The translations under genes and the position numbers were made by a program. From contig CBDDFZ010000001.1 of assembly GCA_965227515.1 (NCBI GenBank), positions 544,001-608,000 on the forward strand: 64,000 nucleotides of DNA. The letters run 5' to 3'. The number at the start of each line of letters is the position of its first letter. Position 1 is the stretch's first letter. The notes under the pieces were generated by a model. That model was not told where the DNA came from, made no database searches, and saw nothing but the letters and a program-made list of their open reading frames with translations. This DNA is from Alphaproteobacteria bacterium. GTDB taxonomy: Bacteria; Pseudomonadota; Alphaproteobacteria; CALKHQ01. Positions 13,169 to 17,085 of this stretch are shown here, in pieces.

Positions 13169-14329
13169 ATGGCAAAACGTGACTACTACGAGGTTCTCGG
13201 CGTCGACCGCGGGGCCGACGCCGACGACCTGAAACGGGCCTATCGCAAGCTCGCCATGCAGTTTCACCCGGACCGCAATCCGGGCGATACCGATGCCGAA
13301 CGCCAGTTCAAGGAAGTCGGCGAGGCGTACGAGATCCTGAAGGACCCGGAAAAGCGGGCTGCCTACGACCGCTTCGGTCATCAGGCCTTCGAGGCCGGGA
13401 TGGGCGGCGGTGGCGGGCGCGCCGGCGGCGCTGGGTTCGACTTCAATTTCGCCTCAGGGTTCGCCGACATCTTCGACGAGATGTTCGGCGACGCCATGGG
13501 CGGACGCCGGCGTGGACGCGGGCGCGGGTCGGGCCGTGGCGCCGACCTGCGCTACGACATGGAAATCACCCTGGAAGAGGCGTTCGCCGGCAAGCAGGCC
13601 GGCATCCGCGTGCCGGGGTCCATCCAGTGCGACACCTGCAACGGCTCCGGCTCCGAAGGCGGGGCCGCGCCGGTCAACTGCTCCACCTGCGGCGGCCACG
13701 GCAAGGTACGCAGCCAGCAGGGCTTCTTCACCATCGAGCGCACCTGCCCGGCATGCCAGGGCGTCGGCCAGACCATCGAGACCCCGTGCAAGGACTGCAG
13801 CGGCTCCGGCCGGCTGCAGCGGGAACGCTCGCTGTCGGTGAACATTCCGGCGGGTGTGGAGGACGGCACCCGCATCCGGCTCGCCGGCGAGGGCGAGGCC
13901 GGGTTGCGCGGCGGCACCAATGGCGACCTTTACATCTTCCTCGCCATCCGGCCGCACGACTTCTTCAAGCGCGAGGGCGCGGACCTGTTCTGCCAGGTGC
14001 CGATCACCATCGTCGACGCCGCCCTGGGCGGGTCGATCGAGGTGCCGACCATCGACGGCTCGCGCGCCAAGGTGACGGTGCCGTCCGGCACGCAGAACGG
14101 CAAGTTGTTCCGGTTGCGTAACAAAGGCATGTCGGTCATGCGCTCCAACGCGCGCGGCGATATGTACATCGAGGTCGGGGTCGAGACCCCGGTCCACCTG
14201 ACCCGGCGCCAGGAAGAGCTGTTGCGCGAGTTCCAGGAGGCCGGCGGCACCGAGCGCAAGCACAGCCCGCAGTCGGCCGGCTTCTTCGCCAAGGTGAAGG
14301 AATTCTGGGACGACCTGACGGACAGGTAG
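13169..14329 (+). CDS. dnaJ: Chaperone DnaJ
   Basis: J domain with HPD, G/F-rich region, four CxxCxGxG repeats. Confidence 0.99.
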
Positions 14330-14359
14330 AACAGACCGCCTCTCTCCATACGCCCCTAC

Positions 14360-14665
14360 TTGTCACCCTCGGCCTTGCGCCTGCTGGGCTCATACTTCAC
14401 ACCAACACAACATCGTCATCCTCGGGCTTGTCCCGAGGATCCATTCATGGGGCGGTCCGCGCCAGTGCCGATCGAAGCTGAAGTGGTGAGCCATTGCATC
14501 CATGCGCTCGCCAATCCAGGCGCCGAATCACCTCAACCTATCGAGGTTCTGGACAAATATGGGTCCTCGCCACAAGGGCGAGGACGACAATGGTTTAGTT
14601 CTTGAGAAATCGAGCGAAGCCTTGCGAGATGTGCGAAGCCCGCAGGGACAAGCCCGAGGACGACG
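14360..14665. repeat. Cluster of four CGTC/TGTC-type REP palindromes downstream of dnaJ
   Basis: CGTCATCCTCGGGCTTGTCCCGAGGATCCAT (14414), ATGGGTCCTCGCCACAAGGGCGAGGACGACA (14559), GGGACAAGCCCGAGGACGACG (14645), degenerate copy at 14360. Confidence 0.8.
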
Positions 14666-14798
14666 GTGTGAATTTGCCAATCAAGTAGATGGGCTAACGG
14701 CCCTTGTTTGGTGGCGTGCATGAGTGGTCGTCCCTCAAGATGTCGGTGTCATACACGGAGTCGGGTTTGCCGCTCCAAGACATCGAGGAGAGACGACC

Positions 14799-15842
14799 AT
14801 GAACTACTATGCCGGGATTGACGTTTCTTTGGAATGGTCATCGGTATGCGTTGTTGACGGCGCGGGCGGGATTGTCTGCGAGGCTCGTATTGCGAGCACG
14901 CCGGCGGGTTTGTTGTTGTGGTTTGGGTCTTTGGGGATTTCGGTTGAGCGGATTGGTCTTGAGGCGGGGCCGTTGTCGCAATGGCTTGTGCGGGAGTGCG
15001 CGCAGGGCGGTCTTTCGGTTGAGTTGCTGGAGACGCGTCATGTTGCGCGGGCCCTTTCGACGATGCCGGTGAAGTCGGACCGCTCGGACGCACGCGGGAT
15101 TGCTCAGCTGATGCGTGTGGGCTGGTTTCGTCCGGTTCACTGCAAGTCTTTGGCGGCCCAGGAGATGCGGGCCCTTTTGAAGGGTCGCGACCAGCTCCGC
15201 GCGAAGCTGCACGATCTTGAGATGCACCTTCGTGGTCAGCTGCGGAACTTCGGGCTGAAGGTAGGGCACACCACCAGGCGCAGCTTTTCGACACGTATTT
15301 CGGAGCTTGTGGCGGGGCATCCGGTACTGGAGGCGGTGGCGGGGGCGCTGCTGTCGGCACGCGATGGCCTGTTGCTATCGTTCACGGCGCTGGACCGGCA
15401 GGTCCGGGCGGCGGCGCAGGCCGACGATCGCGCTCGCCTGCTGATGACGGTGCCGGGCGTGGGGAGCATTGTCGGACTGACCTACTTGTCGGGAGTGGAC
15501 GACCCCGGGCGGTTTGCCTCGTCGCGCCTGGTGGGTGCGCACTTCGGCCTGACGCCGACCAAGCGCCAGTCGGGCGAGAGCGAGGTGATGGGGCGGATAT
15601 CGAAGGTAGGGGACGCCGATGTGCGCTCGGCCCTCTATGAGGCGGCACACGTGGTTCTGACCCGGCCGATCGAGGGCGGCTGGCTGAAGAGCTGGGCGAT
15701 GAAGCTGGCCAGGCGTGCGGGCATGAGGAAGGCGAAGGTCGCGCTGGCGCGCCGGCTCGCCGTGATCATGCACCGGATGTGGGTTGACGGCACACCGTTC
15801 AACCATGCCGGACCGGTGCGCCCGGCGATGGCGACAGCATGA
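14799..15842 (+). CDS. IS110-family DEDD transposase/recombinase
   Basis: YAGIDVS, IGLEAG, KSDRSDA (DEDD RuvC-like); C-terminal GLTPTKRQSGE with conserved Ser; GAGGAG RBS. Confidence 0.95.
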   Translation: MNYYAGIDVSLEWSSVCVVDGAGGIVCEARIASTPAGLLLWFGSLGISVERIGLEAGPLSQWLVRECAQGGLSVELLETRHVARALSTMPVKSDRSDARGIAQLMRVGWFRPVHCKSLAAQEMRALLKGRDQLRAKLHDLEMHLRGQLRNFGLKVGHTTRRSFSTRISELVAGHPVLEAVAGALLSARDGLLLSFTALDRQVRAAAQADDRARLLMTVPGVGSIVGLTYLSGVDDPGRFASSRLVGAHFGLTPTKRQSGESEVMGRISKVGDADVRSALYEAAHVVLTRPIEGGWLKSWAMKLARRAGMRKAKVALARRLAVIMHRMWVDGTPFNHAGPVRPAMATA

Positions 15843-15869
15843 TGGCCGCGGCATAAGGAGAACCGACAC

Positions 15870-16075
15870 ACGAGCTTCGACGGGCACCGACACCGGCCCG
15901 TCGAGCGCCGTCCCGCGCCGGGACGATGGATCAGGTCAGGCCGCCATCCGGGATGTCGCCTCGCATGAGAGCACGCTTCCGTAGATTGGACCGACCGATC
16001 CTCGCATATCCATCTTGGCGGCGGCCCTGCGCCGACCCCGTACAGAAGCATGACCCAGGCGCCGGGACGACGAAA
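15870..16075 (+). ncRNA. Predicted bridge RNA / seekRNA in the IS right end
   Basis: Stems 15877-15904, 15909-19/16058-69, 15928-42/15988-16001 and 16017-23/16030-37, with loops carrying target- and donor-matching segments; boundaries approximate. Confidence 0.75.
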
Positions 16076-16106
16076 AAGGGATTGACCAACAATGGCCCGT
16101 TACAGA

Positions 16107-16194
16107 AGCCCGGATGGAGCGAAGCACAATCCGGGGAAATGGCCACGGCTGGCGCGGAATTACCCCGGGTTCCACTGCGTTCCACCCGGGCTAC
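16107..16194. repeat. GTAG-type REP doublet (left unit interrupted by the IS)
   Basis: (GT)AGCCCGGATGGAGCGAAGCACAATCCGGG ... CCCGGGTTCCACTGCGTTCCACCCGGGCTAC. Confidence 0.85.
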
Positions 16195-16209
16195 GGAGAA
16201 ACATCGCCC

Positions 16210-17085
16210 TCAATTCAGTTTCGCGCGCAGTTGCTGGATCAGAGCGGCGGTCAGGTGGCGGCGCGACTGGCTGTCATCGCAGGCGAGCGATTCCTCCAGC
16301 GTCATGACGGCGGCGCGCAGATTGCCGAGTTCGGCATGCAACATCCCCATGTCGCGCCAGGCGAGCGGGTTCTGCGGGCCGATCCAGGTCATCGCCTCCA
16401 CCACGGCCAGCGCGTCCTCGAACCGGCGCTGGCGGATCAACCGCAGGCGCAAATTCTCCTGCAGCCGCATCAGGATGTCCCGGTTGCTCAGGGGCGCGTG
16501 GTGGGCCGGTTCCAGCTCCGCCTGCTCGCCCAGCGCCGCCTTCACCAACCGGCGCAAATCATGGGCTTCCAACAGATTGCCATTGTGGAACGGATCGACG
16601 ACAAGGCGCCCCTCCGCGCCGCTCAGCGCGATCAGGAAATGGCCGGGGAAGTTCATGCCGTCGGCCGGCCAGCCCTGGGCGCGGGCCACGTGCAAGTAGA
16701 TGATCGACAGCGCGACCGGCAGGCCCTTTCGCCGGTCGATCACCCGCAGCAGATTGGCATTCTGCAGGTCGTTATAGGTGTCCTGGTCGCCGCTGTAGCC
16801 ATTGGCCCCGGCGATCACCGCGCGCAGGGTTTCCACCCGTCCCGATAGCCCGTCAGCGCCTTTCAGCGCCACCGCCTCGGCCATCGCCTGCAAATGGCGG
16901 CGATAGTGGTCCAGGTCGGCGCCAGGCCGGGTGAGCAGGCCCAGGCGCAGCGCCACCTCGGTCAGGTCGACGTCCTCGTCGGTCTGGCCGCCGACGTCAC
17001 GCAGATACTGCTTGGTGTCCGTGTCGAGCACGCGGTTCCCGTGGCGGGCGCGCAGCTGTGTGACTCCGGCCGCGGCTTCCATCAC
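16210..17085 (-). CDS. SirB1/YchA family transglutaminase-like protein with C-terminal TPR
   Basis: VIDRRKGLPVALSIIY, GMNFPGHFL, VDPFHNG, ILMRLQENL. Confidence 0.85.
   Translation of the reverse strand: MMEAAAGVTQLRARHGNRVLDTDTKQYLRDVGGQTDEDVDLTEVALRLGLLTRPGADLDHYRRHLQAMAEAVALKGADGLSGRVETLRAVIAGANGYSGDQDTYNDLQNANLLRVIDRRKGLPVALSIIYLHVARAQGWPADGMNFPGHFLIALSGAEGRLVVDPFHNGNLLEAHDLRRLVKAALGEQAELEPAHHAPLSNRDILMRLQENLRLRLIRQRRFEDALAVVEAMTWIGPQNPLAWRDMGMLHAELGNLRAAVMTLEESLACDDSQSRRHLTAALIQQLRAKLN

Follow-up and report, generated by a model that had tools for sequence, protein, structure and literature searches.

A predicted bispecific guide RNA in the right end of an IS1111-type insertion sequence that targets REP palindromes in an alphaproteobacterial genome

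Does the non-coding right end of a bacterial insertion sequence (IS) hold an RNA that reads both the site where the element inserts and the ends of the element itself? The question is raised by a locus in a window of 64,000 nucleotides (nt), the whole stretch of DNA that was analysed, from an alphaproteobacterial genome (assembly GCA_965227515.1, contig CBDDFZ010000001.1, positions 544,001 to 608,000). Downstream of a transposase gene (tnp) in this window, a first-pass annotation made from the letters alone had pointed out four putative guide segments. RNA-guided IS110/IS1111 recombinases are under development as programmable DNA-insertion tools, and mechanistic work has been done mostly on IS621, a member of the IS110 group. 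Our answer is that the locus very probably carries an active IS1111-group element with a bispecific bridge RNA, or long seekRNA, in its right end. The answer builds on the anatomy of the element, its copy number, its target site, the guide matches, and the covariation of guides with flanks and of paired positions within the RNA, all of which are observed in the genome and its relatives.

The ends of the element were set by its copies in the same genome (5.5 Mb, 2 contigs), which was searched with positions 14650-16150 of the window as the query. Twenty full-length copies with 89-100% identity were found, besides a copy with an internal deletion and four short matches to a repetitive extragenic palindromic (REP) sequence. 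Nineteen of the full-length copies were captured by end anchors, and the remaining one, L020, was treated separately. In 19/19 anchored copies and in L020 the left end ATGGGCTAACGG comes straight after AG, and the right end CCGTTACAGA-AG comes straight before CCYGGRTG. For the copy in the window the left junction reads ...caagt-AG|ATGGGC with the IS start at 14689, and the right junction reads TTACAGA-AG|cccggatgg with the IS end at 16108. The target and circle-junction ends reconstructed in the first-pass annotation, and its AG core, are borne out, as these ends are common to the anchored copies and L020. Element lengths among the anchored copies are 1420 bp (n=12), 1414 bp (n=1), 1429 bp (n=5) and 1423 bp (n=1). 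The element and its insertion site have the following features.

14689 to 16108, plus strand: IS1111-type insertion sequence, 1420 bp with a single AG counted, ends set by aligned own-genome copies
14687 to 14688, plus strand: left copy of the AG core, on the target side, immediately 5' of ATGGGC in the 19 anchored copies and L020
16107 to 16108, plus strand: right copy of the AG core, seen in the anchored copies
14695 to 14712, plus strand: left subterminal inverted repeat, 18 nt, 6 nt inside the IS end
16085 to 16102, plus strand: right subterminal inverted repeat, 18 nt, 6 nt inside the IS end
14799 to 15842, plus strand: transposase/recombinase gene tnp, 347 amino acids (aa), with PF01548, PF02371, NF033542 and the GL-P----SG motif
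16109 to 16135, plus strand: REP palindrome, right half of the target; own-genome homology extends to 16135
16161 to 16200, minus strand: neighbouring uninterrupted REP, inverted, an empty target with the site ctccgtagcccggg at 16183-16194 (G000:C1:560183-560194 in genome coordinates)

According to the inverted-repeat search, the arms 14695-14712 and 16085-16102 are 78% complementary. The left non-coding end (14689-14798) has 110 nt; the right one, downstream of tnp (15843-16108), is longer, with 266 nt. The transposase frame is intact, with 347 aa in 17 of the 19 aligned copies and 345 aa in the other 2, and several copies are mutually 100% identical. Both observations agree with the earlier description of the element as intact. 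Because the frames are kept and several copies are identical, we conclude that the element has moved recently.

Where does it insert? All 20 full copies are located at nGT-AG|CCYGGRTG in one orientation. The joined empty site GTAG-CCYGGRTG, with a single AG, is found 114 times in the own genome, 57 times on each strand, and the reversed control pattern 0 times. Four variants make up the empty sites, CCCGGGTG with 60 occurrences, CCTGGGTG with 33, CCCGGATG with 18 and CCTGGATG with 3. The target is the 5' edge of the REP palindrome (CCCGGATGGAGCGnnGCGCAATCCGGG). Since the ends, the copies and the single-AG empty sites agree, we define the element as 14689-16108, its core as AG and its target as REP. 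Insertion is specific for sequence and orientation, with no target duplication beyond the shared AG core. Members of the REP family commonly occur in inverted pairs about 70 bp apart.

To which group does the element belong? In Pfam the tnp product matches PF01548 (DEDD_Tnp_IS110, 1.6e-12) and PF02371 (Transposase_20, 2.3e-20), and with NF033542, the NCBIfam equivalog "IS110 family RNA-guided transposase", it reaches 239.4 bits against a cut-off of 140. Residues 250-259 of the transposase read GLTPTKRQSG, which fits the motif GL-P----S/TG. This motif, subterminal inverted repeats and a longer non-coding end downstream of tnp are marks of the IS1111 group (PMC11187229; PMC11208160), and the repeats of the group are described as 7-17 bp or more with short terminal extensions (PMC11187229). 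By phmmer the transposases of IS621 and ISCro4 are distant relatives, through the C-terminal domain only (about 3e-11; IS621 2.6e-11), and the N-terminal domain is not detectably aligned to either of them by this method. The domains, the motif, the inverted repeats, the non-coding ends and the insertion specificity assign the element to the IS110 family, IS1111 group. The first-pass assignment to the IS110/IS1111 recombinases stands, on the Pfam and NCBIfam matches, the GL-P----SG motif, the inverted repeats and the long downstream end.

Does the right end contain segments that could read the target and the donor? In the IS1111 group the RNA is located downstream of tnp, and the match to the top strand lies 5' of the match to the bottom strand (Siddiquee et al. 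2024, PMC11187229). A bridge RNA has been predicted in the right end of 93% of the IS1111 elements, often with donor bases in a multiloop (PMC11208160). All four proposed segments are present here, CCATCCGGG at 15944-52, TCCGTAG at 15978-84, CCATCTT at 16010-16 and TACAGAAG at 16041-48. The right-before-left order proposed for the target guides also holds: the complement of the top strand (15944-52) is 5' of the segment with top-strand sense (15978-84), which fits the published arrangement (PMC11187229). The predicted RNA and its parts are listed here.

15906 to 16073, plus strand: predicted core of the bridge RNA or long seekRNA, matched by the covariance model R1 with 109.9 bits, E 4.7e-27
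15944 to 15952, plus strand: putative right-target guide, pairs with the top strand of CCCGGATGG
15978 to 15984, plus strand: putative left-target guide and core, same sense as the top strand, so pairing would be with the bottom strand
15985 to 15986, plus strand: handshake-like AU that follows the core of the left guide, identical to the two bases with which the IS begins
16010 to 16016, plus strand: putative right-donor guide, complementary to the circle-junction sequence AAG|ATGG
16041 to 16048, plus strand: putative left-donor guide and core, same sense as TACAGA-AG, the right IS end
15909 to 15922, plus strand: closing stem, 5' strand, pairs with 16054-16069
16054 to 16069, plus strand: closing stem, 3' strand, from the constrained fold and the duplex test
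15924 to 15943, plus strand: basal stem of the target loop, 5' strand, pairs with 15987-16004
15954 to 15975, plus strand: terminal hairpin of the target loop, from the constrained fold; helix 6 of the model
16017 to 16037, plus strand: hairpin separating the donor guides, from the constrained fold; helix 7 of the model

When 15843-16075 was shuffled 200,000 times by mononucleotides, each guide motif alone was present in 0.15-1.0% of the shuffles and all four jointly in 0. A minimum-energy fold of 15906-16073, in which the four guide segments were forced to be unpaired, contains the helices 15909-22/16054-69, 15924-43/15987-16004, 15954-62/15967-75 and 16017-23/16030-37. These reproduce the closing stem, target-loop stem, terminal hairpin and donor hairpin of the first-pass annotation, and all four guides sit in loops between the helices. 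The unconstrained fold of the same region is similar, yet the two target guides pair with each other.

Do the target guides change together with the target? The transposase search gave 29 loci from species genomes and 80 from metagenomes, with 41-69% aa identity, and the locus set for the comparison of guides and structure comprised 129 loci in all. Conserved anchors served to cut out the stretch that follows the 5' stem (right-target guide), the 9 nt and AG in front of AUUG (left-target guide), the segments around CCCAU and CCGnAnAGAAG, and both IS ends together with the sequence next to them. Loci where the anchor patterns failed or where a contig end cut the flank were omitted, and one representative was used per distinct guide string. 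For the right guide, 89 loci with both guide and right flank contributed 41 distinct guides. Their longest complementary run is on average 7.29 nt with the own flank and 3.68 nt with other flanks, and runs of at least 7 nt are found in 28 of the 41 cognate pairs compared with 3.8% of the non-cognate ones. The left guide, with 43 distinct sequences, has an identity over the 6 nt 5' of the core of 3.60 with its own flank and 1.75 with others; the match is short, mostly 2-6 nt beyond the core. The right targets are diverse between lineages (CCCGGATG, GGCGGATT, CGGACATG, GACTCGAA, GGTGGGCAA, GGCCAGCG, GGACAGG and others), and the guide follows each of them. Guide-target covariation across homologs had been named in the first-pass annotation as a check of its proposal, and both target guides do track their flanks, with 0/10,000 shuffles reaching the observed value in either case. 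On this comparison of sequences the two segments almost certainly function as target guides.

A natural one-base change of the guide is found inside the genome itself. The right guide CCATCCGGG (complement CCCGGATGG) is present in 13 own-genome copies, and CCATCCAGG (complement CCTGGATGG) in 6 copies at about 95% identity and in L020 at 89%. The two sublineages differ at 15950, which is G or A, and the A variant accompanies CCTGG targets. Among the copies of the G lineage 9 of 13 are located in CCCGGATG, compared with 18 of the 114 empty sites (binomial p 2e-5), and those of the A lineage are in CCTGG sites in 7/7 cases, compared with 36 of the 114 (p 3e-4). A Fisher test of target C/T by guide G/A gives p 4.6e-4. 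Between L001 and L020 only 2/168 positions of the RNA region differ despite 89% identity of the whole elements, which suggests either a strong constraint on the RNA region or recombination.

These results bear on the simplest alternative, namely that the right end is a stabiliser or terminator in the 3' untranslated region of the tnp mRNA, and that the guide matches are a coincidence or the remnant of a REP. That the right end is GC-rich and structured, with a modest z-score for the single sequence, would suit such a role. As a scan of the right-end region found no terminator-like site on the plus strand, the idea has little positive support. The joint occurrence of the four motifs was not reached in any of the shuffles, and the guides change with the flanks over 41-43 variants. 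As the covariation of guides with flanks and the guide/target switch within the genome contradict it, we regard the probability of this explanation as negligible.

Is the conserved region an RNA? A homolog of the RNA region was detected in 118 of the 129 loci by profile search, and the 11 loci without a detectable RNA region were left out. RNAalifold, applied to a plain MAFFT alignment of 67 distinct sequences, recovered only 15 pairs (-7.73 kcal/mol); the closing stem was missing, and the invariant GGG was instead placed opposite the CCC that immediately precedes the left-donor guide. For this reason a consensus of 44 pairs was written by hand from the majority subfamily, turned into the covariance model R1, and used for a realignment (A2). 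The seed alignment A1 omitted eight distant sequences (L033, L037, L044, L075, L098, L121, L124 and L125), which model R1 recovered in A2, and the model matches 83 stretches in 89 sources. As A2 is fitted to the proposed structure, its pair counts lean towards that structure; they are 86.8% of cells with standard pairs, compared with 72.3% after column shuffles and 32-48% when the partners are slid by 1-3 columns. The check suggested at the outset, a covariance model from homologous right ends, thus comes out in favour of the fold: 37 of the 44 model pairs have compensatory changes in which both sides varied, and 0/500 shuffles reach any of five measures. Per helix, such changes are seen in 13/14 pairs of helices 1-2, in 9/10 of helix 6 and in 6/7 of helix 7, where 93.5% of the cells are paired.

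Because A2 is fitted to the model, an alignment-free duplex test was added, using 71 distinct sequences. The closing stem has a duplex energy of -23.4 kcal/mol between cognate strands and -18.2 kcal/mol between non-cognate ones, and the target-loop stem -18.9 and -15.2 kcal/mol, respectively, with 0/5000 shuffles reaching the cognate value in both cases. The window's own row in A2 contains mispaired cells from register shifts, which is why its helices were checked by the constrained fold described above. In A2 there are 320 G.U cells and 116 A.C cells, and this excess favours folding on the sense strand of tnp. Judged by the covariance model, a conserved structured RNA is encoded in the non-coding end.

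The covariation of guide and flank by itself cannot tell RNA from DNA, and the same matches could in principle be a DNA-level mimic of target and donor, read by the protein or by DNA-DNA pairing with no RNA involved. The helices preserved by compensatory changes and the 320 G.U against 116 A.C cells indicate a single-stranded molecule of the sense strand, and relatives in the family have been experimentally shown to use RNA (PMC11187229; PMC11208160). We consider the DNA-level mimic very improbable.

Several points weigh against a guide RNA at this locus. The left flank of the copy in the window matches the left guide over GT and AG alone. Right-guide runs are 6 nt or less in 13 of the 41 distinct guides, and the right flanks of L053, L030, L046 and L023 clearly mismatch the right guide, with runs of 2-4 nt; off-target insertion, recombination between copies, nested insertion or an assembly chimera are possible causes. 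The free fold of 15906-16073 is only modestly better than shuffles (z -2.04, with 5/200 shuffles equally good), and the whole right end, 15843-16110, folds no better than shuffles (z -1.14). The invariant GGG of GGGACGAUGG has two possible partners, the 3' strand of the closing stem, as in the model, or the CCC 5' of the left-donor guide; the inner three pairs of the closing stem are ambiguous, as the invariance of GGG prevents a decision. An Rfam scan of 14300-16400 with E up to 10 found no family at threshold. A promoter scan of the linear element gave 0 sigma-70-like promoters, and no RNA sequencing runs are listed for the element, which bears neither way on expression.

The right flank of L053 is the target of another subfamily (GGTGGGCAAAGG). 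The Rfam scan also returned a match of mir-1419 on the REP, which was rejected as chance-level (E 2.2).

Do the other two segments read the donor? At 16041-48 the left-donor guide UACAGAAG has the same sequence as the final 8 nt of the element, and at 16010-16 CCAUCUU can pair with AAG|ATGG where the IS ends are joined. Three forms of the left-donor guide, ACAGAAG, AGAGAAG and AGCGAAG, are found among the relatives, and each occurs with an identical extension between the inverted repeat and the right core. Right ends were located by a pattern derived from this guide with 2 mismatches allowed, so that the equality is partly built in, and only the correspondence of the three forms counts as evidence. 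The complement of the right-donor guide follows the left end in L056 (ATGGTG), L125 (CTTGGG) and L121 (ATGGGC). In L037, L044 and L124, where the left end starts with C, the right-donor guide does not change with this base, and in the same three loci the two bases after the left-target core shift from AU to CU, matching the left end CTGGGG. Over 45 distinct combinations the post-core bases of the left guide and the left end are AT/AT in 39, CT/CT in 3 and discordant in 3, a change of about one lineage. The corresponding donor-side handshake (DBL), which compares the two bases after the left-donor guide with the first two of the right target, is weak, with 0.96 versus 0.84 of 2, a value reached by 883 of 20,000 shuffles, and we make no claim for it.

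The covariation of donor guides consists of few independent changes, fewer than on the target half, and the donor segments may be dispensable, since the 82-nt seekRNA of ISEc11, with target matches only, sufficed for transposition (PMC11187229). It is for this reason that we rate the donor guides below the target guides: from the sequences, a function in donor recognition is likely. The claim that four guides match both target and donor halves fares accordingly in two ways. The target half is supported by covariation with the flanks; on the donor half the matches are present, and their covariation with the ends is limited to few events, with some loci not following.

A rival reading takes this further. 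Only the target module (about 15924-16004, equivalent to the short seekRNA) would guide, the donor segments would be by-products, either conserved sequence bound by a protein or an incomplete copy of the right end, and the ends would be read via the subterminal repeats. For ISEc11, transposition needed no more than the 82-nt seekRNA, and what the long form does is described as unknown (PMC11187229); the long subterminal repeats of IS1111 elements could serve end recognition (PMC11208160). In our data the right-donor guide is nearly invariant (CCCAT) and ignores the left-end change in L037, L044 and L124, the left-donor guide, taken together with the CCG before it, looks like the right end, and the DBL test is easily reached by shuffles. 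Against this stand the three left-donor guide forms, each with a matching right-end extension, and the right-donor guide complements that follow the left ends of L056, L125 and L121. The compensatory changes that preserve the donor hairpin (helix 7) and the closing stem (helices 1-2) disfavour a non-functional donor tail, and donor-complementary bases are reported in multiloops of IS1111 bridge RNAs (Durrant et al., PMC11208160). On balance, guidance by the target module without the donor segments is unlikely, though it is the strongest of the alternatives.

How would the bispecific RNA work? According to the reading that we prefer, the 3' non-coding region 15906-16073 of about 168 nt would be read in sense, probably within the tnp transcript or from a circle-junction promoter, and the RNA would fold as a bispecific bridge RNA equivalent to the long seekRNA. 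The target loop would be the internal loop between the stem 15924-43/15987-16004 and the terminal hairpin. The 5' side of the loop (CCAUCCGGG) would pair with the right half of the REP site on its top strand, and the 3' side, (C)CGUAG, with the left half and the AG core on the bottom strand. On the joined ends of the excised circle, CCAUCUU would pair with the top strand of AAG|ATGG and UACAGAAG with the bottom strand of TACAGA-AG, the two donor segments being single-stranded on either side of the hairpin 16017-37. The DEDD/serine recombinase would then exchange strands at AG, with insertion in one orientation at GT-AG|CCYGGRTG as the outcome. Transcription, protein binding and chemistry are taken over by analogy from the family (Durrant 2024, Siddiquee 2024, Hiraizumi 2024).

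A more ambitious reading joins two proposals. One is natural reprogramming, in which G or A at 15950 partitions REP sites with C or T at target position +3, a single-base discrimination in vivo; the other is a truly bispecific long RNA, with donor guides that flank a hairpin and a two-base handshake. We judge the chances of both being right to be evenly balanced. If true, the natural switch would represent single-base discrimination by an IS1111-type guide in vivo, and the bispecific long RNA would settle what the "long seekRNA" does in IS1111 elements.

How could the RNA be transcribed? A circle-junction promoter has been proposed for the family (PMC11187229). The following line gives a candidate for its upstream element.

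16082 to 16087, plus strand: TTGACC at a distance of 21 nt from the IS end, candidate -35 box of a promoter at the circle junction

Together with GAAG|AT across the circle junction and a spacer of 17 nt, it could form a junction promoter, by analogy with the family. In L028-type relatives TTGACC is, by eye, equally far from the end and outside the inverted repeat.

Two further hairpins of the element lie outside the predicted RNA core.

15874 to 15905, plus strand: hairpin immediately upstream of the guide RNA core, 12 bp, seen in the free fold of the right end
14724 to 14800, plus strand: leader hairpin that covers the Shine-Dalgarno sequence and ATG of tnp, -39.9 kcal/mol, z -3.26

The first may belong to the transcript or serve as a signal for processing, and relatives carry, by eye, a hairpin of other sequence at its place. 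In the leader hairpin GGUCGUCCCUC is paired with GAGGAGAGACGACC, which hides both the Shine-Dalgarno sequence and the start codon. The leaders of homologs have a similar inverted-repeat arrangement of different sequence (by eye). The hairpin probably exerts translational control against read-through transcripts.

The internally deleted copy (G000:C1:998353-999215) fuses the first ~720 bp of the IS to the last ~155 bp and is without the C-terminus of the transposase and the 5' half of the target loop. The copy in the window occupies the intergenic space after the gene at 13169-14329, which from its translation (J-domain start and zinc-finger CxxCxGxG repeats) we take to be a DnaJ-like chaperone gene, 5' of the IS. 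Short palindromic repeats of the type GGGACAAGCCCGAGGA are located in the same intergenic region, upstream of the IS, at 14414-14442, 14560-14590 and 14640-14668; by eye they are unlike the REP targeted by the IS. In the metagenome loci L076, L081 and L094 the right flank is GATTCGAACC and the left one ...GGAG, with guides to match (by eye). The reverse complement of the joined flanks resembles the T-arm of a tRNA (GGAGGTTCGAATCCTCC), so that tRNA genes may be the target of some family members. A search of 40 other genomes with model R1 gave matches in 2/40 and in 0/3 of those from the same family, a patchy distribution.

What does the locus offer? It is a compact IS1111-type system, with a protein of 347 aa and a predicted RNA of about 168 nt that has four readable guides, and its twenty near-identical intact copies imply recent activity. 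The 114 natural empty targets in four variants and the natural one-base guide variant with its matching target shift are resources for experiments, and the 41-43 distinct guide variants from relatives give pairing rules for the subfamily. For genome annotation, the element accounts for 20 insertions and identifies the REP elements as hot spots.

Compared with known systems, this is no new kind of system: the architecture is published, and "RNA-guided transposase" is an established NCBI name for the protein family. With relatives at 68% identity or less and no Rfam family, this member is probably undescribed; the supplementary tables of Siddiquee and Durrant may include a close relative, and an ISfinder name is possible. 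Among annotated proteins the best relatives are "IS110 family transposase" genes on plasmids of Methylocystis, Mesorhizobium, Sinorhizobium and Rhizobium, which match over the full length with at most 68% aa identity and carry the family name as their only annotation, with no RNA annotated.

REP-targeting elements of the IS110 family are reportedly also the subject of an ISPpu9 paper and an ISPpu10 preprint. ISPpu9, ISPpu10, ISPa11, ISPsy8, ISRm19 and ISRm22 resemble our element in the orientation-specific insertion into REPs and in the many copies per genome (Tobes & Pareja 2006, PMC1525189). By their description they are set apart by other hosts and another REP sequence.

IS621 likewise uses a bispecific RNA, with a target loop and donor segments that read both strands around a 2-nt core (PMC11208160; PMC11208158), and its transposase has a related C-terminal domain (E 2.6e-11). 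Its handshake guides (PMC11208158) have a possible counterpart here in the AU that follows the left-target guide and is identical to the two bases at the start of the left end, with a covariation of about one lineage. In contrast, the IS621 RNA lies in the left end upstream of the gene, whereas here it is downstream, and the order of the target guides is reversed. The donor guides of IS621 line a simple internal loop and those described here flank a hairpin in a multiloop; IS621 has repeats of 2-3 bp and a CT core, compared with the long subterminal repeats and AG core of our element (PMC11208160; PMC11208158).

ISEc11, ISPa11, ISKpn4 and ISPst6 are close in design according to their description (PMC11187229). 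They share a transposase of about 340 aa with DEDD and PF02371 domains and the GL-P----S/TG motif, subterminal repeats with short extensions, a long region downstream of tnp, and a segment complementary to the top strand on the 5' side, with both segments facing each other in one loop. The predicted RNA of 168 nt fits the long form of the seekRNA (145-170 nt) and its inner module of about 80 nt fits the short form (70-100 nt), and ISPa11 likewise targets REP sequences (PMC11187229). Unlike these four, our element has an alphaproteobacterial host and another REP target with an AG core. The role of the long form was left open in PMC11187229; here both donor-end matches are readable and partly covary with the ends, and the element is a good candidate system for finding out whether the long RNA of the IS1111 group binds the donor.

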